Shown here in pieces: positions 15,863-63,920 of a stretch of 64,000 bases of DNA. The translations under genes were made by a program, and so were the position numbers. Origin of the DNA: an uncultured delta proteobacterium (GTDB taxonomy: Bacteria; Myxococcota; Myxococcia; Myxococcales; Myxococcaceae); the NCBI GenBank assembly GCA_963796055.1, contig CAWCKH010000004.1, positions 1,984,001 to 2,048,000 of the forward strand, read 5' to 3'. Position 1 is the stretch's first letter, and the number at the start of each line of letters is the position of its first letter. Under the pieces are notes generated by a model. It saw only the letters and a program-made list of their open reading frames with translations. It searched no databases and was not told the DNA's origin.

Positions 15863-15939
15863 GAGGTGTCCGGGGAGGTGTCAAACACCTCTGTCGGCCG
15901 GCTCCATCCAAGCCCAACGAAGGTGTCAAACACCTCTGT
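15863..15939 (+). repeat. REP-like hairpin copies 1 and 2 (15875-15894, 15921-15939) plus upstream half-site GAGGTGTC
   Basis: GGTGTCAAACACCTCTGT occurs twice in direct orientation. Confidence 0.9.
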
Positions 15940-15995
15940 TGATGGCACAACCGCTCGTAACTGCTAGGCAAAGACGATCTTGCTGCGGCGGAAGA

Positions 15996-17295
15996 TCAGA
16001 CCTCGAGCAGCAGCCGCTCGGGGTCCTCGATGCATTCCTTGATGCGCACCAGGAACTGCACGGCCTCCCGACCGTCGATGAGCCGGTGGTCGTAGCTGAG
16101 GGCCAGGTACATCACCGGGCGGATGACGATCTGCCCATCGCGGACCACCGGCCGCTCGACGATGTTGTGCATCCCGAGGATGCCGGTCTGCGGCGGGTTG
16201 AGGATGGGCGTGCTCAGCATCGAGCCAAAGATGCCCCCGTTGCTGATGCTGAACGTGCCGCCCTGCAGGTCGGCCAGGGTCAGCTTGTCCGAGCGTGCCT
16301 TCTGCCCCAGCTCGGCGACCTGCTTCTCGATGTCCGCCATCGACAGCGCGTCGGCGTCGCGCAGCACCGGCACCACCAGGCCGCGACTCCCGGACACCGC
16401 CACCCCGATGTCGTAGTAGTGCTTGAGGACGACCTCGTCCCCCTCGATGGAGGCGTTCACCAGGGGGAACGCCTTCAGGGCATCCACCGCCGCGCGGACG
16501 AAGAAGCTCATGAACCCGAGCTTCACTCCGTGGCGCTGCTGGAACTTCTCGGCGTACTGCTTCCGAAGCGCCATCACCGCGTGCATGTCCACCTCGTTGA
16601 AGGTGGTCAGGATGGCGGCGTTGTTCTGGGCGGCAAGGAGCCGCTCCGCGACGCGCTTGCGGAGCGGCGTCATCTTCACCCGCTCCTCGCGGGCCCCGGG
16701 GGTGCGCGGTACGGGAGCAGGTGACGGGGCCGCGGCGGGCGCAGCGGCGGTCACGGGGGCGGTCGCGGGTGCGGCTGCAGCACCTCCCCGGCCGCCCTCG
16801 AGCACCGTGAGCACATCGTCCTTCATCACCCGCCCCGAGGCGCCGCTCCCGCGAAGCGTGGCCGGATCGAGCCCGTTCGCGTCGGCGATGGCCCGAGCCA
16901 CGGGGGTCATCGGAGCCTGACGGGACCCATCCGGAGACGCCGCCGCGGGTACCACGGACGCCGGGCGCGGCGATGCAGCGGCTGGCGGGGGGCGGCGGGG
17001 TCGAGGGCGCAGGCTGAGCCGACCTTCCGGCGGGGGGCGGGGAGGCGGCAGCCGCGGCGCCGCCGGAGATGGTGCCCAGCACCTCGCCGATCTTCACCGT
17101 ATCCCCTTCGGGGTGGGCGATGCTGGCGATGGTGCCTGCCGCGGGCGCGGGCACGTCGATGGTGACCTTGTCGGTCTCGAGCACCACGAGCGGCTCGTCG
17201 ACGGCCACCGGCTCGCCGACCTTCTTGTGCCACTTTCCCACCACCGCCTCGGTGATGGATTCCCCCAGCGCAGGGACGGTGAGCTCAACGGGCAT
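15996..17295 (-). CDS. sucB: 2-oxoglutarate dehydrogenase E2 (dihydrolipoamide succinyltransferase), frameshift at the G6 run 16987-16992
   Basis: Lipoyl ETDKV in one frame; E3-binding and catalytic DHRLIDG in another. Confidence 0.93.
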
Positions 17296-20203
17296 CGGGC
17301 TGCCCTCGTGCCAGTGCGGCGTCGATCAGGAGCACCTGCTCCAGCTCGTGGGTTTTCTGGAATCCGGTGGCGGGGCTCGCGCTCGCCTCGCGGCCCGCGT
17401 ACCGCAGCGGAAGCTTGCGGCCCTTCGCAGACACGCGGCCGGCGAGCTTCGAGAGCACGAAGGCCCAGGCGCCCATGTTCTCCGGCTCCTCCTGGACCCA
17501 GACCAGCTCCTCCAGCTCCGGGTAGCGGGCGATCTCCCGGGCGAGCTGCGCGTCGGGGAACGGGTAGAGCTCCTCCAGCCGGGCGATGGCGACCGTGTCG
17601 TCCACCGCCTTCGCCCGGGCGGCGAGCAGGTCGTACGCAACCTTGCCCGTGCAGAGCAGCAGCCTGGTGACCCTCGCCTCGCCGCCGGCTGGCGGATCCG
17701 AGATCACCCGCTGGAACTTGCCCGAGGTGAACGCCGACAGCGGCGCGCTGGCCTCCTCGCGCCGCAGCAGGCTCTTGGGGGTCATCACCACCAGCGGCTT
17801 CCGCCAGGGCCGGATGGCCTGACGGCGGAGCAGGTGGAAGACCTGCGCGCTGCTGGTGGGGTAGCAGACCTGGATGTTGTCCTCGGCGGACATCGCCAGG
17901 AAACGCTCCAGCCGCGCGCTGGAGTGCTCGGGTCCCGCGCCCTCGTACCCGTGCGGCAGGAGCAAGGTGAGCCCGCTCAGCCGCCGCCACTTGTCCTCCG
18001 CGGCGACGATGAACTGGTCGATGATGACCTGCGCCCCGTTGGCGAAGTCACCGAACTGCGCCTCCCAGAGCACCAGCGCATCCGGGTAGTCCAGCGAGTA
18101 GCCGAACTCGAAGCCCATGCACCCAGTCTCGGAGAGCGGGCTGTTATAGACCTCGAACCGCGCCGCGCCCGGACCGAGGTCCAGGAGTGGAGTGTAGGTG
18201 ACGCCGGTCTTGGCGTCGTGCAGCACCGCGTTCCGGTGCCCGAAGGTGCCGCGCTCGGTGTCCTGCCCGGTGAGCCGGACGTGGGTCCCGGACTTCAAGA
18301 GCGTCGCGTAGGCCAGGTTCTCGCCCGCGGACCAGTCGAGGGGAATCTCGCCCCGCGCCATCGCCGCGCGTCGCTCGAGGATCTTCCCCATCTGGCGCAG
18401 CGGGGTGAACCCCTGGGGCACGTGCGCCAGGTGCCCGAGCAGCGGGGCCAGGGTCTTCTCCGGCACGCCGGTGTCGGGATCGGGGATGCCCTCCTCGGGT
18501 CCCCCGCGGTACCCCTTCCACAGCCCCTCGTGGGCGCTGGGCTCGCGCAGGGCCGGGGTTTCCTTGGCCTGGTTGTAGGCCTGGAGGAAGTGCCGCTTGG
18601 CCTCCTCGCGGATCGCCTCGGCCTCCTCGGCGCTCACCCGCCCATGAGCGGCGAGCGTCCTGGCGTAGAGCTCGGAGACGGGCGGGTGGTGCCGGATCGC
18701 CTCGTACATCAGCGGCTGGGTGTAGCTCGGCTCGTCGCCCTCGTTGTGCCCGTACCGGCGGAAGCAGACCAGGTCGATGACCACGTCGCTCTGGAACTTC
18801 TGCCGGTACTCGGTGGCCAGCCGCATCGCGTGGACGCAGGCCTCCGGGTCGTCCCCGTTCACGTGGAAGATGGGGATGTCCAGCATCTGCGCCACGGCGG
18901 TGCAATAGATGCTCGAGCGGCCGTCCTCGGGGTCGGTGGTGTAGCCGAGCTGGTTGTTGATGACCACGTGCACGGTCCCGCCGGTGTCGTAGCCGCGGAG
19001 CCGCGAGAGGTTGAGGGTCTCGGCGACGACTCCCTGGGCGGCCATCGCCGCGTCGCCGTGGATGACCAGCGGGAGCACCTTCCGGCGGTCCTGGTCCTCC
19101 AGCCGCTGCTGCTTGGCCCGCGCCCTGCCCTCGACCACCGGATGCACGAATTCCAGGTGGCTGGGGTTGAAGGCCAGGCTCAGGTGGATGCGCTTGCCGC
19201 CCGAGGTGGTGATGTCCGAGGAGAAGCCGAGGTGGTACTTCACGTCGCCCCGGCCCATGAACTTCCGTGGATCCACCGGGCCGTTGAACTCGCTGAAGAT
19301 CTGATCCGGGCTCTTCCCCAGCACGTTGGTGAGGACGTTCAGCCGGCCGCGGTGGGCCATGCCGATGACGACCTCCTCCACACCCAGCTCCCCGCCGAGC
19401 TCGAGCATGGTGTCCAGCATCGGGAGCAGGGACTCGCCGCCGTCCACGCTGAAGCGCTTGGCGCCCTGGTACTTGGTGTGGATGAAGGCCTCGAAGGTGT
19501 CGGCGTAGGTCAGCTTCTCGAGGATGCGCCGCTGCTCCGCGGGGCTGGGGTTGAGCTGGTTCTCGGTGTGCTCCATCCGCGGCATCAGCCAGCGGCGGCG
19601 GTCCGAGTCGTACAGGGTCATGTACTCGACGCCGAGGTGGCCGCAGTAGGTCCGGCGAAGCCTGGCCAGCAGCTCCCGGAGCTTCACCCGCTTGCGGTCG
19701 GGGAAGACGTCGGAGCTGTCCACGAGCTGCTCCAGCTCCTCCGGGCTGAACGCCGCGTCGCTGGCCATCGCGAGATCTGCGATGTGGTGCATCTGCGGCC
19801 GCGGACGTCCCAGCGGGTCGAGCTGGGCGAGCAGGTGCCCGCGGAGCCGGAACGCGTACAGCGTCTGGTCCACCCGCGCCTGCAGCTGCATCGCGGCGAG
19901 CGCTGCCGGCAGGTCACCGACCGCGGCCAGCGGGCTGCGCGCGGGCGCGCTGGCCACCGCCGCGCCGTTGCCGTTCACCGCCCTCGCCGAGACTGCCGCG
20001 CCGCTGCCGGCCCGGTGCCCGTTGGTTGGCTGGGCCCGCCCGTCGCCCGAACCGAGCAGAGGCCGGCCGTCGACGCGGGTCCCGGCGAAGAGCTCCCGCC
20101 AGCTGGGGTCGACCGAGGCGGGGTCCTCGAGCCAGCGGGCGTACAGGCCCTCGATGAAGTCGATGTTGGAGCCGGAAAGAAACGTGTCCGTGGGGTTCGG
20201 CAT
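17285..20203 (-). CDS. sucA: 2-oxoglutarate dehydrogenase E1
   Basis: GMAHRGRLN, GDVKYH, HGDAA, WEAQFGDF, GPEHSSARLERF. Confidence 0.97.
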   Translation of the reverse strand: MPNPTDTFLSGSNIDFIEGLYARWLEDPASVDPSWRELFAGTRVDGRPLLGSGDGRAQPTNGHRAGSGAAVSARAVNGNGAAVASAPARSPLAAVGDLPAALAAMQLQARVDQTLYAFRLRGHLLAQLDPLGRPRPQMHHIADLAMASDAAFSPEELEQLVDSSDVFPDRKRVKLRELLARLRRTYCGHLGVEYMTLYDSDRRRWLMPRMEHTENQLNPSPAEQRRILEKLTYADTFEAFIHTKYQGAKRFSVDGGESLLPMLDTMLELGGELGVEEVVIGMAHRGRLNVLTNVLGKSPDQIFSEFNGPVDPRKFMGRGDVKYHLGFSSDITTSGGKRIHLSLAFNPSHLEFVHPVVEGRARAKQQRLEDQDRRKVLPLVIHGDAAMAAQGVVAETLNLSRLRGYDTGGTVHVVINNQLGYTTDPEDGRSSIYCTAVAQMLDIPIFHVNGDDPEACVHAMRLATEYRQKFQSDVVIDLVCFRRYGHNEGDEPSYTQPLMYEAIRHHPPVSELYARTLAAHGRVSAEEAEAIREEAKRHFLQAYNQAKETPALREPSAHEGLWKGYRGGPEEGIPDPDTGVPEKTLAPLLGHLAHVPQGFTPLRQMGKILERRAAMARGEIPLDWSAGENLAYATLLKSGTHVRLTGQDTERGTFGHRNAVLHDAKTGVTYTPLLDLGPGAARFEVYNSPLSETGCMGFEFGYSLDYPDALVLWEAQFGDFANGAQVIIDQFIVAAEDKWRRLSGLTLLLPHGYEGAGPEHSSARLERFLAMSAEDNIQVCYPTSSAQVFHLLRRQAIRPWRKPLVVMTPKSLLRREEASAPLSAFTSGKFQRVISDPPAGGEARVTRLLLCTGKVAYDLLAARAKAVDDTVAIARLEELYPFPDAQLAREIARYPELEELVWVQEEPENMGAWAFVLSKLAGRVSAKGRKLPLRYAGREASASPATGFQKTHELEQVLLIDAALARGQPDAR

Positions 20204-20273
20204 GGGGGGATTCGCCGGGGAGTTTTAACCTCGAACCCCCGGGAACGCGGAACTTTGTCCCCCCGGGGGACGC

Positions 20274-22229
20274 TCAGGAACCAGGGCCGGGCGGTGTGGG
20301 TCGGTAGTGCACGGTTGCGGCCGGGGGGCCCCCGTCGGCGGGGACCAAGCGGCTGACCAGCCGGCGGCGGTCGACCAGGCACACCGAGCCACGACCGTCC
20401 CGGCAGTAGAACAAGGTCACCGAGTACAGGGCGTCGGACGCCGTCCCCACAGGGGAAATGGAGGTCGTGGCCTTCAGGAGAGGCCCCGAGGCCTCGAGCT
20501 GCAGCGGCGCCGCCCGACCGGCGACCGAGAGCTCGATGCGCTGCGGTGCTCCGGCGGTGAAGGTGTGCCCCTCCGGCAGGCGCACCTCCAGGGTCAGCCT
20601 GCTGCCCGTCGATGCCACCGTCGCATCCTCGAGGTGCTGGACCGGCAAGGCCCGGGTGGCGAGCACCGGGTGCTCCACCAGCCCCCGGACGGACGGAGGC
20701 GTCACCCCCGAAAGCACCAGCGGAGAGACCGCGCCGGTCGCCGCATCCACCGTCACCAGCCGATGATGGTCGGTGTCGGCCACCACCAGCCGCCCTGCCG
20801 AGAGGGTGAGTCCGCCCGGCTGGGCCAGCCCGCGCACCACGGTGGACACCCGAGCGTCGGGGAGCGAGACCCGGCGCACCGCCCCGTTGAAGGTGTCCGA
20901 CACCCAGAGCACGGATCCGGCGAGCGCGAGCCCCAGCGGATGCTGGAAGCGCGCCTCGCCCAGCGCCCCGTCGCGGAGGCCGAAGTCGAACAGCCCTTCG
21001 CCGGCGAGCGTCTTCACCGTACCCGCGCGTGGATCGACGCGGCGAAGCGCGCTCGCCTCGCTGTCGGCGACGTAGAGGACCTGCCCGTCGGTGGCGAGCC
21101 CCGACGGCTGGGCGAAGGTGGCGTCGGCGAGCGGCCCGTCGGCGAGCCCCTCCCGTCCGTTGCCCGCCCCCGGCGCGAGCGCACCGGTCCTCGGGTCGAG
21201 CTGCCAGAGCTGGTGCGCGCCGGCCATGGCGATCCACAGGGTGTCGCCGAGGAACACCACGTCCCACGGGCTGCGGAGCGCAGCGGTCCGCGCGTCGGCC
21301 GCGGGCTGCATGGCGCCGCCAGCCTTCCGGCCCGTTCCGGCGATGGTCTGGACCCTGCCGGTGGCGAGCTCCACCCGGCGGATGGCGTGGTTGCCGGTAT
21401 CGGCGACGTAGATCGCGCCGTCGCGCTCGGCGAGCCCCTGCGGGGAATTGAAGGAGGCGGTGTCCGGCGCGCCATCCGAGAAGCCCTCGAGCCCCGAGCC
21501 CACCGTGCGCGAGAGCCGTCCTGCCGCGTCGACCACCAGCACTCGGTGGTGCCCCGAGTCGGCGACGGCCAGCCCGCCCCCGACGAGGGCGAGCACCTTG
21601 CCCGGGAAGGCGAGCGGCCCGGTGTCGCGCACCGCAGGGCGCTGGAACTCGGCCGGCCCCGGGGCCAGCACCCCGCGCTCTCTCCCATCGTCCAGCGCCG
21701 CCTGGATCCACGCGATGAGCGTGCCGAGCTCCGGCTCGCCGCGAAACCAGGCGACGGCGTAGCCGCGCGCATCCACCAGCACCGAGGTGGGCCAGCCGTG
21801 GATGGCGTACTGGTCCCAGACCACCAGGTCCGAGTCGGTGGCGACGGGGTGCTGAATTCCGTGCCGGGCCATGGCCTCGGCCACGGCCGACACCTCCTTT
21901 TCGGCGTCGAACTTCCCCGAGTGGATGCCCACCACCTGGAAGGGCTGGCCGGCGAACCGCTCCTCGACGGCGCGGAGCACTGGGAGCGCCTGGAGGCAGT
22001 TCACGCAGCCCGAGGTCCAGAAGTCGAGCAGCACCACCCGGCCCCTGAGCGCGCCGCGGAGCAGCAGCGGCCGGTCGGTCCCGAGCCAGGTCCCCACCCG
22101 GTCCAGGTCCGGGGCCCGGGGGTGACCTCTGTCGAGGAGCGCACGGATGGACATCGTCGGCTCCTGGGCAGCCGGCGCCGGGGTGGGCGCGGCGGCGAGA
22201 AGGGCGAGCACGGGAAGCACAGGGGACAC
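20274..22229 (-). CDS. Secreted thioredoxin-like + NHL-repeat protein
   Basis: LDFWTSGCVNC; repeated VADxGNH/VSDTFNG NHL units. Confidence 0.85.
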   Translation of the reverse strand: MSPVLPVLALLAAAPTPAPAAQEPTMSIRALLDRGHPRAPDLDRVGTWLGTDRPLLLRGALRGRVVLLDFWTSGCVNCLQALPVLRAVEERFAGQPFQVVGIHSGKFDAEKEVSAVAEAMARHGIQHPVATDSDLVVWDQYAIHGWPTSVLVDARGYAVAWFRGEPELGTLIAWIQAALDDGRERGVLAPGPAEFQRPAVRDTGPLAFPGKVLALVGGGLAVADSGHHRVLVVDAAGRLSRTVGSGLEGFSDGAPDTASFNSPQGLAERDGAIYVADTGNHAIRRVELATGRVQTIAGTGRKAGGAMQPAADARTAALRSPWDVVFLGDTLWIAMAGAHQLWQLDPRTGALAPGAGNGREGLADGPLADATFAQPSGLATDGQVLYVADSEASALRRVDPRAGTVKTLAGEGLFDFGLRDGALGEARFQHPLGLALAGSVLWVSDTFNGAVRRVSLPDARVSTVVRGLAQPGGLTLSAGRLVVADTDHHRLVTVDAATGAVSPLVLSGVTPPSVRGLVEHPVLATRALPVQHLEDATVASTGSRLTLEVRLPEGHTFTAGAPQRIELSVAGRAAPLQLEASGPLLKATTSISPVGTASDALYSVTLFYCRDGRGSVCLVDRRRLVSRLVPADGGPPAATVHYRPTPPGPGS

Positions 22230-22333
22230 GGGGGGGCAGCCTTCCGGGAAGGACCTACCCGGGGACTACGCGGCGCGCCACCGGTCGGTTTCGGGCCCAG
22301 GCGCCCCGGCGAGCCGTGGTAGACCCCGCCGCC

Positions 22334-23170
22334 ATGTTGCTTCAAGGCAAGCGCCTGCTCATCACCGGCGTCCTGACTCCCCAGTCACTGGCGTACGGGA
22401 TTGCCGAGCTGGCCCAGTCGGAGGGAGCCGAGATCGTCCTGACCTCGTTCGGCCGCGGCATGTCCTTGACCGAGCGCTCGGCGCGGCGGCTCGACCCGGT
22501 CCCCGACGTCCTGGAGCTCGACGTCAGCAACCCCGAGCACTTCACCCGGCTCACCGAGACGCTCAAGGCTTCGGGGAAACCGCTCCATGGCGTGCTGCAC
22601 GCGGTGGCCTACGCACCCGAGGACGCGCTGGGAGGGAACTTCCTCAACACTCCGTGGGAGAGCGTGGCCACCGCGTTCCGCGTCTCCACCTTCTCGCTCA
22701 AGGAGCTGGCGGTGGCGGTGGCCCCGGTGATGACCGAGGGCGGGAGCATCGTCGCCCTCGACTTCGACAACTCGACCCAGGCCTGGCCGGTCTACGACTG
22801 GATGGGAGTGTGCAAGGCCGGGATGATCTCGGTGATTCGCTACCTCGCGCGCGACCTCGGGCCGAGGAACATCCGGGTGAACGCGGTGGCCTCCGGGCCG
22901 CTGATCACCATCGCCGCGAAGGGGATTCCCGGGTTCAAGCAGCTCTCCGACACCTGGACCCTGTCCGCGCCGCTCGGCTGGAACGCGCGCGACCGCCATC
23001 CGATGGTCGCGAAGACGGTCGTGGCGCTCCTGTCGGACTGGTTCCCCGGGACCACCGCCGAGGTGGTGCACGTGGACGGTGGGCGGCATGCCATCGGCTC
23101 GCCGCCGGTGGACGTCATGGAGCGGATGACAGCCGCAGCAGCGGACGACGAGCCCGGCCCGAAGGAGTGA
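22334..23170 (+). CDS. fabI: Enoyl-ACP reductase (InhA-type FabI)
   Basis: GKRLLITGV, YDWMGVCK, RVNAVASGP, HVDGG. Confidence 0.92.
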   Translation: MLLQGKRLLITGVLTPQSLAYGIAELAQSEGAEIVLTSFGRGMSLTERSARRLDPVPDVLELDVSNPEHFTRLTETLKASGKPLHGVLHAVAYAPEDALGGNFLNTPWESVATAFRVSTFSLKELAVAVAPVMTEGGSIVALDFDNSTQAWPVYDWMGVCKAGMISVIRYLARDLGPRNIRVNAVASGPLITIAAKGIPGFKQLSDTWTLSAPLGWNARDRHPMVAKTVVALLSDWFPGTTAEVVHVDGGRHAIGSPPVDVMERMTAAAADDEPGPKE

Positions 23171-23342
23171 GGCGGGCCGTTCTCTCGTTGCACGGAGAGG
23201 CGGGGAGCCCGAGCGCCTTCCGGACCTCCGGGGGCCCACCGGCGTGACTGGAGCGGCCCCCGCCCGCCCGCGCCGGGGAGCCTCAGCCCCCCGAACCAGG
23301 GGGACGCTGTGGAAGCGCGCAGGAGCGCGCCGTCGATCGGGC

Positions 23343-25607
23343 TCAGAACCGCTTCAGGGCGACGATGTCGTTGTTGAACGGATCGACGTAGTAGACGTTG
23401 CCCTGATCCACCCCGCCGATGAGCGACGAGTTCTGCGCCAGACGAGGGTAGCGATACAGCCACCGCGGCGTCAGACCGGGGCCGAAGTGCAGGACCACGT
23501 CCCCCAGCGTGGCGCTGTTGAGCAGCACGCTGAGGCTCCCGTCGGTCGCGGACTTGACGTTCTTCGCCAGCCGGGACGTCGCCGACCCGTACACGTAGAG
23601 ACCGGGGACGCGCGCCGTGGCCACCGGCCCCGCTCCGTCCGGCTGCCATGCCTCGAAGGTGGTGTACGGCGGGTCGTTGCGCATGGTGACCACCGCGCCG
23701 AGGGCCGGAACGGTGCCGAACGTGCCTCCCTGGACCACGCCGAGCACCAGTGGCTGGCTGGCCAAGGTGACGCCCACTTTTGCGAGATAGCTGCCGGTGA
23801 TGGTTCCGCCGGCACCGACGTGGAGGACGACCCACCGCGGAACGGCCGCAGCCGCGCCGCAGTCGAGGTCCACGCCCACGGCGAAGCTTCCATCCACCAC
23901 CGGGAGGAGCCGGTTGACGGCGAGCACGGTGCAACCGGCGAATGCCGAGTCGGCGCGCTGCTGGGGCACGAACGTGCTCTGGGGGAAAGCGAAGACGCTC
24001 CAGGTCGGCCCACAGAACGTGGCGGTGTCATTCGGGGCGAGGTAGGTCCGCACCGGGCCGAACGCGCCGGTCGTGCCACCCGACGTCGGCGCGGCGAGGT
24101 CCAGTGCCGGGTTGGCCGTGTTGTCCCCGTTGCCGAGGACCAGCTGGCCCGTCGAGGCCTGGAGGCAGGCGACCGTGTGCGTCGCCGGGGCGCCGTAACA
24201 CCCGGTGGGCGTGCCGTTGAGGATGTCGGGGATGCAGACCAGGTCGTCCATCCGCGTGAGCACGGGACCGGTCACGCTGCCGTCGGTCTGGAGTGAGTCG
24301 AGCGCGAACGGCACCGAGTAGCCGGTGGCCGGCCTGGGTCCGTTGATCGGCTCGCCGAGCGCGATGACGTCGCTGCCGGCCCGCTGGGTGCTGTCGGGCC
24401 GGGTGAAGAGCACGTTCCCACGTGCGTCGAAGTCCGCGGCGACGAAGCCCGCGTCGATCGGAAAGGGAATGCTGCCGCCGTCGACGACGGCAAGCGCGGC
24501 CACCCCGGCGTCGTTGAGGATGGGCCCGGCGTCGTTCAGTCCCGCGTCCGGTCCCCCATCGGACCCACCGTCGGGCGTTCCACCCTCCCCGCCATTGCCA
24601 GCGTCGGTCCCGGTGCCCCCCGCGTCGGCGGGGTCGGGCAGGGGCTGGGAGGAGACGATGATGCTGTTCGGATCGAACGGGACGTACGTGCCGTCACCAG
24701 CCCGGAAGAAGCCGGGGAGCCAGTCGGAGGTCGCATTGACCGTGGCGTTCTTCGCCAGCGCCACCTGGATCCCCCGGGCGGTGGCCACCGGCTCGGCGGC
24801 GTCGATGGCGATGCGGCCGGGGACGATGCGGTCCCAGAGCACCCGGCTGAGGAGCACACCCTGCTCGATGTGGCTGGCGTTTCCGTTGGTGGCCCGGGCG
24901 TCGACGGTGAGGCTCACCGACCGCTCCACGTCCACCAGCACCTCGAACGGGACGTCGTACGGGTCGCCGCCGTAGTTGTCGATGCCCAGGCCAGGGGCCT
25001 GGACGAAGGTGACGTCGTAGAACGGCGCGCCTCCGTCGGGGTTGGCGCGCTGGACGATTCCGTTTGCCTCCAGTCCGGCGAGCCTCACCGTCGGCGGGAG
25101 CAGCAGCGGCCGGTCACTGCCCACGGTGAGGTGGAGCGGCGCGAGCGGCGCCACCCGCTCGGGCAGCACCGCGGAGAGCGAGGCGGTGGTGGTGTCGAGC
25201 AGGACGTTGAGCGACTTGGTGCTGACGTGGCCGAGCTGATCCACGCCGATGAACGTGAGCTGCAGCTGGCCCACGCCCGAGTCCGCCACCCCGCTGGTCA
25301 CCAGGGTGCAGCGGGTGAAGTCGACCACTCCGGTGTACGGCGGCACGTTCCAGGTGAAGACGCCGGTGCTCGGCGCCCCGCCGCAGGTCACCGTCACCGA
25401 GCTGACTCCGCTCACCGACACCGCGTCCACGCTGACCGGCGTGTTCAGCGAGATGGTCTGCCCCTCGAGCGGGGAGTGAATGGTGAGCGTGGGCCCCACG
25501 CCTCCGTCGGCGGGAACCTCGGGAAGCTCGAGGTCGAGGCAAGCCGAGAGCAGCAGGCACGACGCGGCGAGGAGCACTTCCCGGCACCGCACCGAAGTCA
25601 CGGACAA
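23343..25607 (-). CDS. Large hypothetical lipoprotein
   Basis: LLSAC lipobox; Ig-like N-terminus; DAG/DGG-rich linker; strong coding bias. Confidence 0.75.
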   Translation of the reverse strand: MSVTSVRCREVLLAASCLLLSACLDLELPEVPADGGVGPTLTIHSPLEGQTISLNTPVSVDAVSVSGVSSVTVTCGGAPSTGVFTWNVPPYTGVVDFTRCTLVTSGVADSGVGQLQLTFIGVDQLGHVSTKSLNVLLDTTTASLSAVLPERVAPLAPLHLTVGSDRPLLLPPTVRLAGLEANGIVQRANPDGGAPFYDVTFVQAPGLGIDNYGGDPYDVPFEVLVDVERSVSLTVDARATNGNASHIEQGVLLSRVLWDRIVPGRIAIDAAEPVATARGIQVALAKNATVNATSDWLPGFFRAGDGTYVPFDPNSIIVSSQPLPDPADAGGTGTDAGNGGEGGTPDGGSDGGPDAGLNDAGPILNDAGVAALAVVDGGSIPFPIDAGFVAADFDARGNVLFTRPDSTQRAGSDVIALGEPINGPRPATGYSVPFALDSLQTDGSVTGPVLTRMDDLVCIPDILNGTPTGCYGAPATHTVACLQASTGQLVLGNGDNTANPALDLAAPTSGGTTGAFGPVRTYLAPNDTATFCGPTWSVFAFPQSTFVPQQRADSAFAGCTVLAVNRLLPVVDGSFAVGVDLDCGAAAAVPRWVVLHVGAGGTITGSYLAKVGVTLASQPLVLGVVQGGTFGTVPALGAVVTMRNDPPYTTFEAWQPDGAGPVATARVPGLYVYGSATSRLAKNVKSATDGSLSVLLNSATLGDVVLHFGPGLTPRWLYRYPRLAQNSSLIGGVDQGNVYYVDPFNNDIVALKRF

Positions 25608-26011
25608 AGAGGCGAGCCTCCCGAGGCAGGGCAGACGCTCGCAAAGGGTACCAGACCCCCGCCGGACTCAGAGAAAGCAGCGGTGGCGCCGAGGTGGTCG
25701 GACCAACCCCAGATGCGCCTGTCAGGAAACGTTCCTCCTCCGCCGCGGACGCTCGAGGTCACCCGCGTCTGGTCGAGGTGATCCACACGTCGCCGCTTGG
25801 CGCCGCGGTGGGCAGCGGCGGCTCCGCGCGTGGAGCGGCTCTCGCGTCCCATCGCCAACGCTGCGACGCGGGTGAGGAAAGGTGTCCCGTCCGCTGGAAC
25901 GCGCGAACCAGCGATGCCGGCGAGGACGTGGCGTCATCCGGGAGGTGCTGTAGAGTCAATCCGTTCGCTTCGGGGCGAAGTGCCCTCGGCGGCCGTGCTC
26001 CCACGAGGGGA

Positions 26012-27177
26012 ATGACCGTGATGTCACTTCGGGTGGCGCTCCTGGGCGTGCTCGTTTCCTCCGCGGCGATGGCGGCGGACACCCGTCTCTCCTGGTCCTC
26101 GATCTCGACCCGAGGGGCGTCGGCCTCCCCGAGTCGCAGGCCGCGACCGGGAGCGTGGTGCGCGGGCTCCGCCAGCTCGAGGTCTTCCAGGTGCTCAGCT
26201 CGGACGACGTGCGGCAACTGCTCGCGCTGGAGCGGACCCGCCAGCTCTCGGGCGCGAAGGCCGAGGGCAGCGTCGGTCAGCTCGGCGCGGCGCTGAACGC
26301 GCCCAACGCGGTGGTGGGCAGCGTCACCCGGGTTGGCGGAAAGCTGCAGGTGGAGATTCGCCTGATCGACGCGCCGACGCAGAAGGTCCTGAGCCAGAAG
26401 AGCCTCAATCAGGTCACCGTCGAGCAGGTGGCGGCCCAGCTCCCCGGGCTGGCGCAGGAGCTGATGGCGCCGCTGCTCCGCGAGCAGCAGGGCTTCCTGG
26501 TGGTGAAGTCGCGCGAGGAAGCGGCGGAGGTCCTGGTCGACGACACGCTGGTGGGGAGCATCCCGCTGAAGGGCTCGATCGACCTGTCCCGCGGCGTGCA
26601 CCGCCTCACCGTGCGCAAGGACGGCTTCATCGCCCAGACCCGCTCGGTGCGGATCGAGCCGAAGCAGACCACGGTCGAGGAGGTCGAGCTCCAGCCCTCG
26701 GCGGACTACGCGAAGGTCTACAAGGACAAGTACGGCAAGATGCGGGTGGGCGCGTGGATCGCCACGGGCGTGGCGATCGCCGGCATCACCACTGCGGTGA
26801 TCATGAACTCCTCGGCCTCCAGCCAGTACGACGAGGAGTTCAAGCCACGGCAGGCCTGGCTCCAGGGCGCGGCCGGCACCGGTCCCCAGACCAAGCCGCC
26901 GGAGATCGCCAACAACCCCACTGCCAGCGCCGCGTGGGACAGCTGCACGACCTCGGGGGCCGCCGCCTGCAAGCAGGCCGCAGAGGACGCCAAGAGCAGC
27001 GTGCAGGTGAAGCAGTACGTGGCCATCGGGGCCGGGGTGATCGGCGTCGCCTCGGCGGGCATCGCCACCTGGCTGTGGCTCAGCGGGAAGGACCCCAACC
27101 GCTACGCCGACGTGGTGGCCGGCGTCAGCCCGAACGGCCAGGGCGGCATGACCCTGGCGCTCGCCGGCCGATTCTGA
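26012..27177 (+). CDS. Secreted PEGA-domain protein, frameshift at TCTCTC 26086-26091
   Basis: Signal peptide in one frame continues as LLVLDLDPRGV... in the frame of the PEGA domain (EVLVDD..GVHRLTVRKDGF). Confidence 0.75.
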
Positions 27178-27186
27178 CCCTCGGCG

Positions 27187-27199
27187 GAGGTGTCAAACA
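27187..27199 (+). repeat. REP-like copy 3, left part (interrupted by IS); TSD TGTCAAACA at 27191-27199
   Basis: GAGG+TGTCAAACA followed directly by the IS left end. Confidence 0.9.
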
Positions 27200-28494
27200 C
27201 TGACGAATCCCCACTTCTCGTGAGGCAGAGCGCGAGGAAAGTCGGGAGCTTGAACGGCGCGTGGCCGCGACACGTCACGCTTGTTCTTGTGAGAAAACCA
27301 GGATCAGTAGACGCGGCCCGCGCCGCGCTTCTTGTCGCGCGTTTCACCAGCCCTCTGCAAGCAGTCCTCGACACCCGGCTCGTCAGCGCGCTGACGGTCG
27401 CAGTGACGGCGGCCTGCATGGGCGCCCAGCTGACGCTGACGTCCCTGGGGCGATGGCTTCCCGGACCAGCGCTTCGCAAGCACTCAGTGAAGCGCATCGA
27501 CCGGCTCCTCGGGAACAACAGGTTGCACCTGAAGCTGGCGGCGTGTTGGGCAGCGCTGGCCGCCCTTCCCGCGAAGGGCCGCATCGTCCTCCTCATCGAC
27601 TGGACGGGCGCCAACGACGGCAAGCAGTGGTGGGTGCTCAGTGCGTCCCTCGCCGCCGCTGGCAGAGCCATCCCGCTCTACGACGCCGTCTTCGGCAAGG
27701 GAGAGTACGACTCGGTCCGAGCACGGGAGACCTTCCTGCGAGAGCTCGAGCGGATTCTGCCTCCGTGCAGGCGAGTCATCTTCGTGGCCGATGCTGGCTT
27801 TCGGGTGCCCTTTCTCAAGCAGCTGGCTTCCCGCGGCTGGGACTTCGTCGTCCGTCTACGTGGCCGCCCCTACGTCCTGCTCAAGCGCACCGGTGAGAGC
27901 TTCCGGCTGAAGGAACTCCGCCGTCGCGCAAGGCCAACGGCAGCGTCGCTCGGCCCGGCACAGGTTTGTCGAGGTAGCAAAGCCTTCGTGTGCCGCCAAC
28001 TCGTGCTCTTCCGGACGCGGCGGAAGGGACGCAAAGCGAAGGACCGACTGGGCCGTGTCCGGAAGTGGCGACGGAGCCGTCACTACGCCTCCTCGTGGCG
28101 GGAACCGTGGGTGCTGCTCACGTCCCTGCCGGACGGCGCCGAGAGGATTCGGCAGCTCTACTCGATGCGCATGGCCATCGAGGAGACCTTCCGAGACATC
28201 AAGAACCCACGCCTCGGCATGGGTTTCGCCGGCTCCGCCTCACGCTCGCTCCCTCGGGTACGCGTCCTGTGGCTCATCGGCGCCATCGCCGCGAAGGTCT
28301 GCAGGGCGATGGGCGAGCACGCCGAGAAGATAGGCCTCGTCCGCGGGCTTCAGGCCAACACCATCAAAGACCGACGGGTGCTCTCCGTCTTCCGTGCCGG
28401 GATGCTCGTCCTCAACATACTCCTCGCCCCCCTCCGGGACGCTCTTGGCGGTCCACCACCCCTACTGCTCGCATGAGAAGTGGGGATCCGTCAG
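27200..28494 (+). mobile_element. IS4-family (IS10-like) insertion sequence, 1295 bp
   Basis: 20-bp IRs CTGACG(A/G)ATCCCCACTTCTC (19/20 match), resembling the IS10 end CTGATGAATCCCC; 9-bp TSD TGTCAAACA. Confidence 0.95.
27289..28476 (+). CDS. IS4-family DDE transposase
   Basis: LIDWT, VADAGF, YSMRMAIEETFRDIK (YREK motif); start uncertain. Confidence 0.92.
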   Translation: MRKPGSVDAARAALLVARFTSPLQAVLDTRLVSALTVAVTAACMGAQLTLTSLGRWLPGPALRKHSVKRIDRLLGNNRLHLKLAACWAALAALPAKGRIVLLIDWTGANDGKQWWVLSASLAAAGRAIPLYDAVFGKGEYDSVRARETFLRELERILPPCRRVIFVADAGFRVPFLKQLASRGWDFVVRLRGRPYVLLKRTGESFRLKELRRRARPTAASLGPAQVCRGSKAFVCRQLVLFRTRRKGRKAKDRLGRVRKWRRSRHYASSWREPWVLLTSLPDGAERIRQLYSMRMAIEETFRDIKNPRLGMGFAGSASRSLPRVRVLWLIGAIAAKVCRAMGEHAEKIGLVRGLQANTIKDRRVLSVFRAGMLVLNILLAPLRDALGGPPPLLLA

Positions 28495-28510
28495 TGTCAA
28501 ACACCTCTGT
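28495..28510 (+). repeat. REP-like copy 3, right part (TSD + CCTCTGT)
   Basis: TGTCAAACACCTCTGT directly after the IS right end. Confidence 0.9.
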
Positions 28511-28654
28511 CGTCCTCTCCTCCGGGTTTCCCACCGGTCGCCCACAGGGCGGGTGCGTGTTACCCCAGCCTTTCCACAAGGATTTCCACGGCCGTGAAAT
28601 GTTCCGTCTGCACTGCTTGCTTCGGGGGGTTGTGGGCGATAGCCTCCGACCTCG

Positions 28655-28867: not shown

Positions 28868-29134
28868 GAGCCTGTAGGGCAGCACTGAGTGCGGCCGCCC
28901 TGACCTCGCCGACTGCAGCCCGCCTGACGACACCCTGACCCAGATCTCGACCGCGGCCGCCCTGACTACTCGCCTGCGGCCGCCGTGACCTGCCGACTGC
29001 AGCCCGCCTGACGACACGCTGACCCGGATCTCGGGCGCGGCCGCCCTGACTACTCGCCTGCGGCCGCCGTGACCTGCCGACTGCAGCCCGCCTGACGACA
29101 TGCTGACCCGGATCCCGGGCGCGGCCGCCTTGAC

Positions 29135-29136: not shown

Positions 29137-31423
<2,287 letters not shown>

Positions 31424-32994: not shown

Positions 32995-33013
32995 GAGGTG
33001 TCAAACACCTCTG
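32995..33013 (+). repeat. REP-like copy 4
   Basis: GAGGTGTCAAACACCTCTG. Confidence 0.9.
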
Positions 33014-44086: not shown

Positions 44087-45226
44087 ATGGGCCAGCCGGG
44101 TGACGTGGAGCGGGTGTTCGTCCAGTGCCTGCCCGGGCTCGAGGAGGTGCTGGCCTCGGAGGCGGCCTCGCTGGGGCGGGTCCGACCCGTCGTCGGCGGG
44201 CTGGAGCTGGAGGGAGCGCCGGGGGTCCACGCCGATGCGGTCCTCGTCCTCCGGGTTGCCGAGCGCGTCCTGCTCCGGTTGCTGGAGTTTCGCGCCCGGC
44301 GCTGGGAGGCGGTCGAGGCAGCGCTCCGGGCGGCGGTCCTCGATGACGTCGTCGAAGCGGGGGGGCCGGTCGTCCTGGAGACGTCGATCCGGATGGCCGG
44401 GGCGCCGGCGCCGGGGGGACTCGCGCGGCTCCTCGCCCGGCTGTGGCATCGGCCGGTGGAGCAGGACCGCGGTGGCGACCGCGCGGGAGAGGCGACCCGG
44501 CTGGTGCTCCGGGTGGCGGAGGGGACTGCGTCGCTCTCCGCGGACGTGGGTGGCGCGCCGCTCCACCGTCGCGGGTGGCGCCAGGAGCTGTCGCGGGCCC
44601 CCTTGCGTGAGACGCTCGCCGCGGGTGTGCTGGCGCTGTCGGGGCACGCGCCGGAGCGTGCGCTGTGGGACCCGGTCTGCGGGTCCGGCACGCTGATCAT
44701 CGAGGGGGCGCTCGTCGGCCGTTCGGTGGCTCCGGGGCTCGGCCGGAGCTTCACCGCGGAGGCCTGGCCGTCCGCGGCGCGCGCGGACTGGGCGCTGCGG
44801 CGGGAACGGCTTCGCGCGTCGGTGCGGTCGCACGCGCCGGCACCCATCGTCGGAAGTGATCTGAATGCAGGCGCGCTGGGGACGGCGCGACGCAATGCGC
44901 GGCGTGCCGGCGTGCTGGACGACCTCCGTCTCGAGCGGCTCGACGTGGCTCGGGCTACACCGGGGCCGCTCCTGCCGGGGCTGATGGTCGGGAATCTTCC
45001 GTATGGGCTGCGGGTGGGTGCCCGCGAGGGGCTCGAGGCCTTCGATGCAGGGCTGGGGAGGACACTCACCGGCCCGTTCCGGGCCTGGCGCCGGGGGCTG
45101 CTCGTGGACGACCCAGCCCGCCTCGTGCGCGCCGGTGGCCGACCGCCCGACCGCGTTCACCGCCTGGTCAACGGCGGTATCCCCGTCGTTCTCGGGACGT
45201 GGGAGCCGGACGGCAGAGGTGTTTGA
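44087..45226 (+). CDS. RlmL/K-like RNA methyltransferase
   Basis: LHRRGWR, APLRETLAA, DPVCGSGT, NLPYG. Confidence 0.85.
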   Translation: MGQPGDVERVFVQCLPGLEEVLASEAASLGRVRPVVGGLELEGAPGVHADAVLVLRVAERVLLRLLEFRARRWEAVEAALRAAVLDDVVEAGGPVVLETSIRMAGAPAPGGLARLLARLWHRPVEQDRGGDRAGEATRLVLRVAEGTASLSADVGGAPLHRRGWRQELSRAPLRETLAAGVLALSGHAPERALWDPVCGSGTLIIEGALVGRSVAPGLGRSFTAEAWPSAARADWALRRERLRASVRSHAPAPIVGSDLNAGALGTARRNARRAGVLDDLRLERLDVARATPGPLLPGLMVGNLPYGLRVGAREGLEAFDAGLGRTLTGPFRAWRRGLLVDDPARLVRAGGRPPDRVHRLVNGGIPVVLGTWEPDGRGV

Positions 45227-45244
45227 CACCTCGGCCGACACCTC
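45214..45244 (-). repeat. REP-like copy 5 (inverted) plus half-site; overlaps the methyltransferase stop codon
   Basis: CAGAGGTGTTTGACACCTC-GGCC-GACACCTC. Confidence 0.9.
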
Positions 45245-45300
45245 GGCCGGGCACCTCGGTTCGGACGGAGGGTCCAGGCTCGCGGACGGGGGGCGCTGGA

Positions 45301-49212: not shown

Positions 49213-49230
49213 GGTGTCAAACACCTCTGT
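49213..49230 (+). repeat. REP-like copy 6, upstream of the RAYT gene
   Basis: GGTGTCAAACACCTCTGT immediately after the dipeptidase stop. Confidence 0.9.
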
Positions 49231-49297: not shown

Positions 49298-50218
49298 TTG
49301 GGCTGGCCAATTCGAATGTTCGTTCCGGGGGATGTCTATCTCGCCACCCTACGCTGCCTTCACGGCCGCTACCTGCTCCGTCCGTCGGAGCAGACGAACG
49401 AAGTCCTAGGCGGTGTACTGGCAAGGGCGGCCCGGCTGACCGGGGTCGAGGTCTTCGCCTTCGCGTTCGCCTCCAACCATGTGCACCTTCTGGTTCGAGC
49501 TCCTCGCGGGAACCTTCCTCGCTTCATGCAGCACCTGTCGGCCAACATCTCGAAGAAGGTCGGTTTCCTCACGGGCTGGCGCGGGCCCTTCTGGGAGCGA
49601 AGGTACTCGGCGCAGCCGGTTCTGGACGAAGCGGCGCTCCTCGACCGGCTCCGGTATGTCCTGGCGCACGGCCCGAAGGAGGGACTCGTCCGGAAATGTT
49701 CGGAATGGCCAGGGCTGAGCTGTCTCAAACCCTTGCTCGATCGCAAGCCCCGGAAGTTCCGCTGGTACGACTGGACCCGTCGGTCGAGTAGTCGCGACCT
49801 CAGGAAGAAGTCCCGATTCGACGATTGCTGGGCCGAGCCCGAGGAACTGGTGCTCACGCCTCTACCGATCGCCGCGCTACGCACCCGAGGCGCAGTCGGA
49901 CGCTTCCTCCGGCGAACGACGGACTCCATCGAGAGGGAGGCAGCTGGCATGTACCAGCGTGTGCTCGGCGTGGACGGAGTATTGCGGCAGGACCCACAGC
50001 ACAGGCCCGCTCGTCTAGAGCGCAAACCGCGTCCGCTCTGCCACACGACGATTCCGGCACTTCGGGAGGAGTTTCGAGAACGCTATCGCGGCTTCGTCGC
50101 TGCATTCCGCGAGGCTTCCCGGCGCTGGAAGGCAGGCGACTTCCACGCGCAGTTCCCCGAGCGAGCTTTCCGCCCTTTCATTTGGCCCACGTCGCCCCCC
50201 GTCGAACTCGCAGCCTGA
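49298..50218 (+). CDS. REP-associated tyrosine transposase (RAYT; HUH/Y1, IS200-like fold)
   Basis: N-terminal T-x-R, SNHVHLLV (HUH), FMQ, FWERRY, RYVLAHG (candidate catalytic Tyr), EGLV..W. Confidence 0.88.
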   Translation: MGWPIRMFVPGDVYLATLRCLHGRYLLRPSEQTNEVLGGVLARAARLTGVEVFAFAFASNHVHLLVRAPRGNLPRFMQHLSANISKKVGFLTGWRGPFWERRYSAQPVLDEAALLDRLRYVLAHGPKEGLVRKCSEWPGLSCLKPLLDRKPRKFRWYDWTRRSSSRDLRKKSRFDDCWAEPEELVLTPLPIAALRTRGAVGRFLRRTTDSIEREAAGMYQRVLGVDGVLRQDPQHRPARLERKPRPLCHTTIPALREEFRERYRGFVAAFREASRRWKAGDFHAQFPERAFRPFIWPTSPPVELAA

Positions 50219-50223: not shown

Positions 50224-51345
50224 TCAACCCGAGTGCGAATGGATGGGCCCGCGGCGTAGCCGCAAGCTCTGTGCGTCGGTTCCGTTGAAGCGGGCCTGGA
50301 TCTCCGAGAGGATCGAGAGCGCGATCTCCTCCGGTTGCTCGGCTCCGAGGTTTAGCCCTACCGGGCTGTAGACAGTCGCTCGTTGCTCATCGGTTGGCGA
50401 GAAGCCGCCTTCGCGCAGCTCGTCGAGGAGCCGCTCCGTTCGTGCGCGCGGACCGAGCACGCCCACATAGGAGCAGCCGGATTCGAGCGCAAATCGCAAG
50501 TATCCTCGGTCGTGCCCGAGGTTGTGCGTCATCACTACGATGGCGGAACCAGGCTCGAGTGCGAGCTTCTCGGCGATCGCGGCAGGACCGGCCGTGAGCT
50601 GGACGTTGGCCTCGCGGAAGAGCTCCGCCGGAACACCGGCAGAGGTGTTTGACACCACCGTGACGTGGAAGCCGACTGTCGCGGCCAGCCGAACCAGCGG
50701 AACCGCGTCCTGGCCCGTGCCGAACACCACCAGGGACCGGGGTGGCCGGATGACCTCCAGCAGCACCTCGACCGCCCCCTCCTCGGTTTCGATCCGGCCG
50801 ACCCGGGTCGTTCCCGCGCCGAGCGCCGCCTCCGCCGCTGCCAGAATCCGATCGCGCGCCGGGCCGGCCGGCAGATCGGACCGGGTCCACCCTGCATCCT
50901 TCAGCACTCGCTGCCCCACACGGGCCCCCGCCTCGTCGCGGAACACCGTCGCCATCACCCCCGTCCGGCGCGCGGCGAGACATCCCGCGATGAACTCGAT
51001 CGGGTGAATCTCGCCTCCCGTGGTGAGCCGCTCCAGAAGCACCTCCACCCGTCCGTTGCACCCCAGACCGAACGTCCAGGTGTCCTCGTCGTCCGCCGAC
51101 GTCGAGTCGTAGGTGACGACCACCGGCCCCTCACGGGTACGCCACCACGCCTTCTGCAGCACGTCGCGCTCCAGACAGCCCCCGCTGATCCCGCCCGCGA
51201 CCCAGCGCTCGGCCGAAAGGAGCAGCCGCGCCCCTGGCCGTCGGTAGGTCGAGCCACTGGTCGCGACCACCGTGGCCAGCACGACCGGCTGCCCGCCCCC
51301 CCGGAACTCGCTCCAGCCCCGCACGATGTCCTGCAGCTCTCTCAC
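50224..51345 (-). CDS. XdhC/CoxI-family Mo-cofactor insertion chaperone
   Basis: GSTYRRPGA, SGGCLE, GCNG, VMTHN, YVGVLGP, PVGLNLGA..PEEIALSI. Confidence 0.9.
   Translation of the reverse strand: MRELQDIVRGWSEFRGGGQPVVLATVVATSGSTYRRPGARLLLSAERWVAGGISGGCLERDVLQKAWWRTREGPVVVTYDSTSADDEDTWTFGLGCNGRVEVLLERLTTGGEIHPIEFIAGCLAARRTGVMATVFRDEAGARVGQRVLKDAGWTRSDLPAGPARDRILAAAEAALGAGTTRVGRIETEEGAVEVLLEVIRPPRSLVVFGTGQDAVPLVRLAATVGFHVTVVSNTSAGVPAELFREANVQLTAGPAAIAEKLALEPGSAIVVMTHNLGHDRGYLRFALESGCSYVGVLGPRARTERLLDELREGGFSPTDEQRATVYSPVGLNLGAEQPEEIALSILSEIQARFNGTDAQSLRLRRGPIHSHSG
50640..50656 (-). repeat. REP-like copy 7, inside the xdhC coding sequence
   Basis: CAGAGGTGTTTGACACC, exact reverse complement of the 17-bp core. 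Confidence 0.85.
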
Positions 51346-62760: not shown

Positions 62761-63875
62761 CCGGGCAGCCCGCCACGCTCGTCGAGCACACCGCCCGCTT
62801 CTGCCGCCGTCTCCGGGCGGAGGGTCTCCGGCTCGGACCGGGGGACACGCTGGACGCGACCCGCGCGCTGGACTCGGTGGACCTCGTCGATCGGGAGGAC
62901 GTCCGGCTGGCGCTGCGCACCGCGCTGGTCAAGCGCGTCGAGGACCTCCCGGTCTTCGAGGAGCTGTTCGACACCTTCTGGGGTGGTGGTGCTCCGGCTC
63001 GAAATCCCCGGGTCATCCCGCCCGACGCCGAGGAGAACCGTCCGTCCCTCGGCAGTTCCTCGAAGCGCCGGCGCACTGGCGAGTCCATCGAGGAGATGGA
63101 GGAGCTCGCGGTGCCGGCCCCCAGCCGACGCGAGGCGCTCGGCCGACAGGACTTCGCCACTTTCGGCGACGAGGAGCTCCGGGCGGTGACCGCGCTCGCC
63201 CGGCGCATCGCCCGGCGGCTGAGCGCGCGCCCCGGACGGCGCTGGCGGCAGGCCCGGCGCGGGGAGCAGGTCTCGCTTCGCCGCACACTCCGCGAGGCGA
63301 TGAAGACCGGCGGCGAGCTCTCCACCCTGACCTACCGCGAGCGGAAGCTCCGCCGGACCCGCCTGGTCATCCTCGCCGACGTCTCGGGGTCGATGGACGT
63401 CTATGCGCGGCTGTTGCTGCAGTTCCTCTACGCCCTGCAGAATGCGTTCGCCCGCGTGGAGACCTTCGTCTTCGCCACCCGGCTGAGCCGGGTCACCGAC
63501 CAGCTGCGGGCCCCAGGCTACCGGGATGCGCTGGGGAGCCTGTCGGAGCGGGTGCAGGACTGGAGCGGTGGCACGCGCATCGGCGAGTCTCTCTCCGCCT
63601 TCCTCGCCGGCTGGCCGCGGCTGGTGGATCGCAGGACGGTGGTGGTGGTGCTCAGCGACGGCTGGGAGACGGGTGACCCGGAAGTACTGGGCGAGGTGCT
63701 GACCGCGCTCCGTCGTCGGGCCGGTCGACTGGTCTGGTTGAACCCGCTCCTCGGCAGTCCCGGCTACGAGCCGCTGACCAGGGGGATGCAGGCCGCGCTC
63801 CCGCATCTGGACGTGTTCGCGCCGGCGAACGACCTCGCCAGCCTCGAGCAGCTGGCGAGGCACCTCAGTCTCTAA
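62757..63875 (+). CDS. coxE: VWA-domain CoxE-like protein
   Basis: DVSGSM (MIDAS), GGTRIG, SDG, WLNP. Confidence 0.9.
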   Translation: MTGQPATLVEHTARFCRRLRAEGLRLGPGDTLDATRALDSVDLVDREDVRLALRTALVKRVEDLPVFEELFDTFWGGGAPARNPRVIPPDAEENRPSLGSSSKRRRTGESIEEMEELAVPAPSRREALGRQDFATFGDEELRAVTALARRIARRLSARPGRRWRQARRGEQVSLRRTLREAMKTGGELSTLTYRERKLRRTRLVILADVSGSMDVYARLLLQFLYALQNAFARVETFVFATRLSRVTDQLRAPGYRDALGSLSERVQDWSGGTRIGESLSAFLAGWPRLVDRRTVVVVLSDGWETGDPEVLGEVLTALRRRAGRLVWLNPLLGSPGYEPLTRGMQAALPHLDVFAPANDLASLEQLARHLSL

Positions 63876-63899
63876 GAGCGCCGGAGTCGTAGAGCCCGG

Positions 63900-63920
63900 A
63901 GAGGTGTCAAACACCTCTGT
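63900..63920 (+). repeat. REP-like copy 8
   Basis: AGAGGTGTCAAACACCTCTGT, about 25 bp after the coxE stop. Confidence 0.9.

Follow-up and report, generated by a model that had tools for sequence, protein, structure and literature searches.

The window analyzed here is a 64,000-nucleotide stretch of contig CAWCKH010000004.1 from an uncultured member of the Myxococcaceae, and it carries a gene for a putative tyrosine transposase of the kind (RAYT) associated with repetitive extragenic palindromes (REPs), termed RAYT-A, together with a dispersed 17-base near-palindrome that very probably belongs to this enzyme. The initial annotation had placed the 17-mer at eight loci, and this count held, with seven exact copies and one split by an insertion sequence (IS), compared with 0.13 expected and a maximum of 1 in 100 shuffles allowing up to 3 mismatches. 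In the orientation in which the 17-mer was first written, the exact matches lie at 15877, 15922, 32997, 49213, and 63903 on the plus strand and at 45214 and 50640 on the minus strand. As first described, the repeat is AT-rich for its genome (G+C of 9/17 compared with ~70%) and lacks GTAG. Rfam gave no match anywhere in the window. The gene and its flanking sites are listed below; here and in later lists, sites are given by the strand of the foot (the 5' tag, CAGA in the 17-mer type), which is opposite to the strand of the 17-mer match.

49298..50218, plus strand: RAYT-A, RAYT-like HUH/Y1 tyrosine transposase, 306 amino acids, intact, with H61, H63, Y120, and YVLAHG
49213..49229, minus strand: left end-site of RAYT-A, 7 bp past the stop codon of an M20 peptidase gene, foot toward the RAYT-A gene
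Between 49219 and 49218, minus strand: predicted cut at the left end-site
50640..50656, plus strand: right end-site of RAYT-A, inverted relative to the left one and coinciding with xdhC codons V-V-S-N-T-S

The RAYT-A protein matches PF01797 above the cut-off and scores 50 bits with the RAYT model NF047646 (cut-off 80) compared with 17 bits for the IS200 model NF033573, both values being below the cut-offs. Its AlphaFold model (mean predicted local distance difference test score, pLDDT, of 92) is most similar to Escherichia coli TnpA-REP (4ER8; Z 15.2, root mean square deviation 2.3, 155 residues aligned), with a weaker match to the IS608 structure (Z 8.5). His-61, His-63, and Tyr-120 are invariant across 128 aligned sequences, and nonsynonymous divergence in the family is 0.07–0.12 compared with synonymous divergence of 0.53–0.99 (5 pairs, rough counting method); in this genus the gene keeps to one locus and is under purifying selection. 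The nearest relatives are found in named metagenome-assembled genomes of Myxococcaceae. In place of the class 2 signature Y---NP the family has Y[VIL]L[AS]HG[VP]KEGLV, with the NPVK of the E. coli enzyme aligning with HGVK. Among the residues of the E. coli enzyme listed as contacting GTAG (PMC6006769), Trp-94 and Glu-100 are kept and Gln-95, His-101, and Arg-104 are not, as read from a weak alignment. The spacing from Trp-94 to Tyr-120 is near that of E. coli, the large insertion of the subclass 2.3 type (55 residues between β3 and αC) is absent, and there is no YVDLNP. The C-terminal extension of ~165 residues gave no Pfam match to the helix-turn-helix (HTH) families Bac_DnaA_C, HTH_23, and HTH_28 in any of the 128 members at an E value of 0.1; modeled alone, it reached a predicted template modeling score of 0.44 with no structural match above Z 4.0, and neither a new nor a different fold is shown by this model.

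RAYT-A and a second gene of its clade in the same genome, RAYT-B (61% identical), are both bracketed by inverted site copies with their feet inward, and at the loci of some relatives the flanking sites are in direct orientation. The xdhC codons GTG TCA AAC ACC at the right end-site are unchanged in 11/11 orthologous loci, TCA accounting for 2.1% of Ser codons, and five xdhC homologs from four other genera are without the site. The Ser codon that follows V-V-S-N-T is TCT in 5/5 loci where the enzyme uses the CAGA foot, and the 6 remaining loci have TCC, so that a synonymous codon tracks the enzyme clade. The remaining copies in the window are dispersed.

15877..15893, minus strand: site copy in the cspA-sucB spacer, with an 8-base partial repeat (15863–15870) after it on the foot strand
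15922..15938, minus strand: second site copy, a direct repeat of the copy at 15877
27189..28509, minus strand: IS-split site copy, with a 9-bp target duplication (27191–27199 and 28495–28503) centered on the palindrome axis
32997..33013, minus strand: site copy absent from the orthologous spacer of the genus relative G102
45214..45230, plus strand: site copy, an exact match, that gives an RlmL-type gene its stop codon
63903..63919, minus strand: site copy 3' of a CoxE-like gene; G102 has the site and the relative G159 does not

The initial annotation described the copies as mostly lying near stop codons and as folding into hairpins, and its observation was confirmed. With genes called by our own simple codon-usage gene caller, 7/8 window copies overlap a stop codon or lie within about 115 bp of one, the exception being the copy at 50640, which is inside xdhC, with the stop of that gene 426 bp away. 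Of seven copies folded, five have the 7-bp hairpin as the minimum-energy structure of the foot strand (z −1.9 to −4.7), those at 49213 and 50640 being the exceptions, and it does not appear to be the recognized unit, since relatives described below are without it. At 45199–45230 the TGA that ends the RlmL-type methyltransferase gene comes from the site, which adds a few residues, and the stop occurs earlier in some relatives; two further copies in this genome overlap gene ends in the same manner. A genome-wide count, which the initial annotation had suggested, returned only 11 exact copies in 5.53 Mb; 7 of these are in the window, making it a hot spot.

Site variants and their RAYT genes

A relaxed core, GGTGTYTGRCACY, occurs 63 times in this genome (G000) compared with 0.34 expected under a fifth-order Markov model. 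Nineteen of these cores have a CAGA foot (A-type, that of the 17-mer), 30 have an AACGA foot (B-type), and 14 have others. Each type clusters at its own gene. A distance of 50 kb or less separates 7/17 A loci from RAYT-A (0.31 expected) and 11/19 B loci from RAYT-B (0.34 expected), whereas the 100 kb around RAYT-B contain no A locus and the 100 kb around RAYT-A no B locus. The same arrangement was seen in the genus relatives G045, G102, and G159, for which the regions analyzed took in 211/262 listed cores, including every one that lies up to 40 kb from a gene. Within this distance the local variant matches the gene at 8/8, 9/11, and 4/4 A-type sites, respectively, where A-type pools CAGA, CGGA, and CCGA; at 17/17, 22/22, and 20/21 B-type sites; and at 13/19 (G045) and 11/16 (G159) sites of a third variant, C. 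In G159 the third gene matches partially and was assigned via its foot, and in G102 a third gene has no core nearby. Sites distant from any gene are of mixed variants. In a 55-row tree the feet track the starred clades, a match that indicates congruence and is not proof of co-evolution, as kin share labels.

The 5' extension is likewise paralog-specific (CGDCA, GTAAC, ATTAC, and others), and the NCAG foot that had been taken to define the repeat class is not supported in that role. The linkage to this RAYT clade, by comparison, was borne out: all 13 genomes of the genus carry both 27–106 cores and 1–6 genes of the RAYT-A clade, and 148 other genomes of the order sample contain 0–1 cores each, some of them with relatives of 42–47% identity that use other end motifs. 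In two spacers of G000 (contig C4, 1776900–1777011 and 1790204–1790335) A-type and B-type sites stand ~100 bp apart, which suggests that new copies may settle beside old ones. At the tip of a predicted β-hairpin, residues 160–177 of RAYT-A form a basic loop that varies by clade and reads SGN in 12/12 B-type rows. This loop is a candidate reader of the foot, its variation being confounded with ancestry.

Relatives of RAYT-A in Cystobacter, Archangium, and Vitiosangium (about 50% identity) are multicopy and have non-palindromic ends, GAGTYCTTT-GACACC, with no hairpin; 139 motifs of this type are present in one complete Cystobacter fuscus genome. Because these ends share only T^GACAC with the genus sites, the constant of the family is T^GRCAC and not the hairpin. 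The Archangium and Cystobacter relatives are probably still mobile. At L154 (6000–7250, C. fuscus) a 1.2-kb gene lies between an array of right end-sites and a solo left end-site and has other contexts in related genomes, which makes its movement by these ends possible as judged from their arrangement. In two other families of the order, more distant relatives (L006–L012 and L013–L032, 30–47% identity) show unrelated end motifs with outward stutters that look similar by eye, and some of these genomes contain many near-identical copies.

Duplication scars and the predicted reaction

Short tandem duplications were found to abut the sites in a fixed register. The set comprised 374 de-duplicated genus sites (all of G000, the retrieved regions, and the RAYT loci of relatives). 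Duplications occur on the 3' side (top strand) at 116/374 sites, 63 of the 116 having as their first base precisely the G that follows the central T, and on the foot side (bottom strand) at 111/374 sites, 55 of the 111 beginning at the mirror position, compared with 9 duplications in 1452 positions of shifted controls. The periods peak at 13–15 and the duplicated units are 12–16 bases long. At positions outside the motif, none of the 11,525 occurrences of GRCACC in G000 has a scar. The window provides one example.

45225..45260, plus strand: duplication scar, a 12-base unit beginning at ^GACACC, in two exact copies and a degenerate third

The hairpin-less ends carry the same scar. Among 200 Archangium-type ends, 62/117 outward duplications begin at T^G compared with 1/46 inward ones, and across six named genomes from Archangium, Cystobacter, and Vitiosangium a start at position 0 is seen for 35/112 outward and 0/112 inward. 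In the genus, foot-side scars are confined to strands that read ^G, a matter of one core base: of 382 sites, foot-side duplications start at 0 in 54/206 with a C-core and in 0/176 with a T-core. The absence at T-core sites recurs in each of four genomes (0/22, 0/33, 0/24, and 0/30), and the corresponding C-core values are 12/42, 17/44, 19/51, and 2/29. This recurrence from genome to genome outweighs any P value because arrayed and orthologous sites are not independent. The 17-mer is the T-core form and is therefore expected to be a one-sided substrate.

Taken together, these patterns point to the 17-mer being, probably, the end-site of RAYT-A, whose product would bind the paralog-specific inner part of the site, nick T^GRCAC, and prime the copying that spreads the site. 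The enzyme would bind the foot plus GAGGTGTY; the site read from outside is GGTGTCAR. Cleavage by HUH enzymes yields a free 3'-OH and a 5'-phosphotyrosine (PMC3333891), and after a nick at T^GRCAC the phosphotyrosine would be on the G. Host polymerase might then extend the 3'-OH by ~13–14 bases of strand-displacement synthesis, and attack of a 3'-OH on the phosphotyrosine would rejoin the strand. Because synthesis of this length follows a nick at T^G and precedes the attack on the phosphotyrosine, the resulting tandem duplication would start at the nick. Copying would spread the site mostly near its own gene, a pattern from which a cis preference of the protein may be presumed. The nick at T^G, taken by itself, is favored at somewhat better than even confidence. 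Nick-primed amplification has already been proposed for REPs, those of E. coli among them (PMC3333891, Fig. 7B, on the amplification of BIMEs; PMC2817692).

Several observations weigh against this interpretation. The foot classes were set after inspection of the data; 10/17 A loci in G000 lie more than 50 kb from the gene; and a CAGA cluster is present on G102 contig C140, on which no such gene was found. A full scar is seen at 1/8 window copies, with a partial scar at one further copy, and arrayed, kin, and orthologous sites are not independent of one another. The scars are anchored at two points, 0 and +13 to +15, and the long duplications at Archangium ends keep the +13/+15 boundary with a variable upstream start; a minority of short duplications begin at +1 to +5. 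A G follows the unit in 29/53, 21/43, and 40/59 cases compared with backgrounds of 0.41, 0.37, and 0.48, and this enrichment at the junctions allows slippage on a one-base microhomology. No clean pair of empty and filled sites was found at three Cystobacter loci compared across five related genomes; element ends could not be fixed there because the flanks are unlinked, rearranged, or multicopy. In orthologous spacers of the genus the presence or absence of a site is visible, and divergence is too high for junctions to be read.

Because the long duplications share the +13 to +15 boundary, cleavage may instead begin distally. In this alternative the same enzyme and site are retained, the primary nick is made in the opposite strand at a distance of ~13–14 bases from the motif, on its outer side, and inward synthesis usually halts at enzyme bound at position 0; a variant invokes two staggered nicks that leave a footprint like a target duplication. 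Peaks of start plus period at 13–15 in all three scar sets agree with it, as do the long whole-motif Archangium duplications, which hold this boundary with the other end variable, and E. coli TnpA-REP is reported to cleave away from its REP (PMC3333891). However, position 0 is sharp to one base and its strict G resembles cut-site specificity, whereas the distal point is spread over 12–16 with a weak sequence preference (slight enrichment of CG^G at the boundary dinucleotide), and we regard a distal primary cut as unlikely.

More doubtful still is a classical REP reading, in which the enzyme would recognize a single-stranded hairpin with a 5' NCAG tetranucleotide guide and the repeat would spread in the manner of REPINs. 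The genus sites are indeed hairpins with one-sided conservation and a T-G mismatch that makes the strands unequal, 54/63 core copies in G000 are extragenic, and Trp-94 and Glu-100 belong to the guide-binding region of the E. coli enzyme. Against this, the paralogs have no common tetranucleotide, the other three guide-contacting residues are not kept in the weak alignment, hairpin-less ends carry the same scar, and 92/97 close pairs (<300 bp) are direct repeats. It is quite improbable that the enzyme owns the site and the duplications arise without an enzymatic nick, by slippage of host replication or repair at a tightly bound protein: such a protein might set the register, and one-base G microhomologies are common at the junctions, but the single-base register, the strand polarity, and the dependence on one core base are hard to explain in this way. 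Finally, a site for a transcription factor or nucleoid protein, or an acquired island, is suggested by the short near-palindrome and the local clustering but is already largely refuted and has a negligible chance of being correct, as only 8/54 intergenic copies lie between divergent genes (744/2884 spacers genome-wide) and 15/54 between convergent ones (388/2884), separate clusters are centered on each paralog in four genomes, and the region contains housekeeping genes linked to the same repeat in relatives.

Other candidates were set aside. Hairpin-stall slippage is excluded by the scars at hairpin-less ends. No U tract indicative of a terminator was seen, no dedicated scan having been made, and unequal sister exchange is without support (solo B left halves, 0; solo or mutated A halves, 4).

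An insertion sequence at the repeat axis and neighboring features

The eighth window copy is interrupted by an IS.

27200..28494, plus strand: IS4-family, IS10-subgroup-like element, 1295 bp, CT ends, 9-bp duplication

Removal of the element and one duplicate restores the exact 17-mer. The transposase scores 251 bits with NF033591 (cut-off 152), and the element has the size (1200–1350 bp), CT ends, 9-bp direct repeat, and IS4 DDE transposase tabulated for the IS10 subgroup (PMC2266710). All five copies in G000 are 99.8–100% identical and stand at the axis of a member of the repeat family (two A-type, two B-type, and one other variant); a DNA query did not find the element in 12 other genomes of the genus. 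ISRm22, an IS4-family element that targets REP palindromes, is similar in that every copy is inserted at the axis of the palindrome and flanked by a direct repeat (PMC1525189); it differs in that the present element is IS10-subgroup-like and uses both A- and B-type sites. In four DNA runs of one study, only short low-depth contigs matched positions 15000–34500, with a higher depth over the IS, and no junctions at repeat sites in this interval were among the matches listed; no RNA run containing this DNA was listed. At L083 (G102 contig C133, ~89750–89815) B-type sites are fused to a 12-base remnant of the IS10-like end, with duplication following the fusion; the G102 assembly yielded no full copy of the IS.

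Two further features of the window were noted. An 82-bp unit, unrelated to the 17-mer, is present in about three tandem copies at 28885–29135 just past the 3' end of a Clp ATPase gene, and the 82-base step back is also present in contigs from two of the runs. Beside the RAYT locus, 45301–47730 encodes an 809-residue HerA-like ATPase with weak matches only.

Relation to known systems and implications

The closest known systems are the TIRYTs and TIRtrons, named for terminal inverted repeats (TIRs) (Di Nocera et al. 2013, PMC3733652), and the family probably belongs to TnpA-Y1 subclass 2.1 (Quentin et al. 2018, PMC6006769) as well as to RAYT Group 1 (Bertels et al. 2017, 10.1101/119735). Descriptions already exist of RAYT-like genes that are flanked by TIRs and accompanied by repeat families of modest size (PMC3733652), and the present locus resembles a TIRtron in having a RAYT-like gene between inverted non-GTAG repeats that also form a modest dispersed family. 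Read by sequence against the consensus, GGTGTCAG agrees with the TIRtron GGGGWSAS at 7/8 positions in the C-core form and at 6/8 in the T-core form (PMC3733652). The flanking 16-mers of RAYT Group 1 average 12 copies (10.1101/119735), similar to the 11 exact 17-mers found here. The differences from TIRYTs are the YVLAHG in place of Y---NP, the lack of a Pfam HTH in the 128 members, the length of 306 residues, and the paralog-specific local clouds and fixed-register scars, which do not appear in the available descriptions of that class. For subclasses 2.1 and 2.3 the accessible part of PMC6006769 reports no REP-like sequence, and a term search of its supplements found no myxobacterial genus name.

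The TnpA-REP systems of E. coli, Pseudomonas, and Stenotrophomonas, with their REPs, REPINs, and BIMEs, share with RAYT-A the 4ER8 fold, a single-locus, vertically kept gene, a cognate repeat for each paralog, and mostly extragenic hairpins (PMC2817692, PMC3333891, PMC8266576), as well as the origin of new copies near the gene (PMC2817692). In contrast to these systems, the present repeat has no GT(A/G)G head and no inverted doublets, numbers tens and not hundreds of copies, has a hairpin that is dispensable in relatives, and has its predicted cut at the palindrome center (T^G) instead of at C^T outside the recognized REP (PMC3333891). The A-type 5' extension is often CGTC, CGAC, or CGGC, recalling the CGTC-tagged palindromes, which are reported without a transposase in the available text of PMC3733652; the tag here varies, differs between paralogs, and goes with a gene, and that family was rejected as an explanation. 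The proposal that the repeat is a REP class of the RAYT at 49298 is thus upheld as regards the enzyme, by the inverted flanking copies, the clustering, and the variants that track the clade, but not as regards the class: judged from the sequences, the repeat fits better with a TIRtron end spread as a REP-like family, outside the classical REP/REPIN class. A literature search found no report of this repeat family or of fixed-register scars, with most subscription journals beyond reach and a similar repeat possibly listed in Fig. 9 or the supplements of PMC3733652.

The way in which RAYT enzymes generate REP-type repeats in cells and amplify them remains an open question in the field, and for the TIRYT class no biochemistry was found in the accessible literature. 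The family yields exact predictions, namely the cut base, the strand, the C-versus-T core switch that turns the foot-side reaction off, the paralog-specific sites, and a candidate specificity loop at residues about 160–177. These can be tested now because the hairpin-less version is present in cultured strains of C. fuscus and Archangium, and a short site-specific nicking-joining enzyme with swappable specificity might be developed as a tool. More broadly, we tentatively suggest, at rather less than even confidence, that a large Myxococcota HUH clade reads a short asymmetric half-site rather than a folded hairpin and its guide, nicks T^GRCAC, and writes site copies in cis via host polymerase and its own ligation, and that it spans mobile TIR elements to domesticated genes. 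If this is true, the scars would be a base-resolution genomic record of the nick-prime-rejoin reaction proposed for REP amplification, and the clade, extending from the mobile TIR elements of Archangium and Cystobacter to single-locus genes with REP-like clouds, would show REPs arising from transposon ends.

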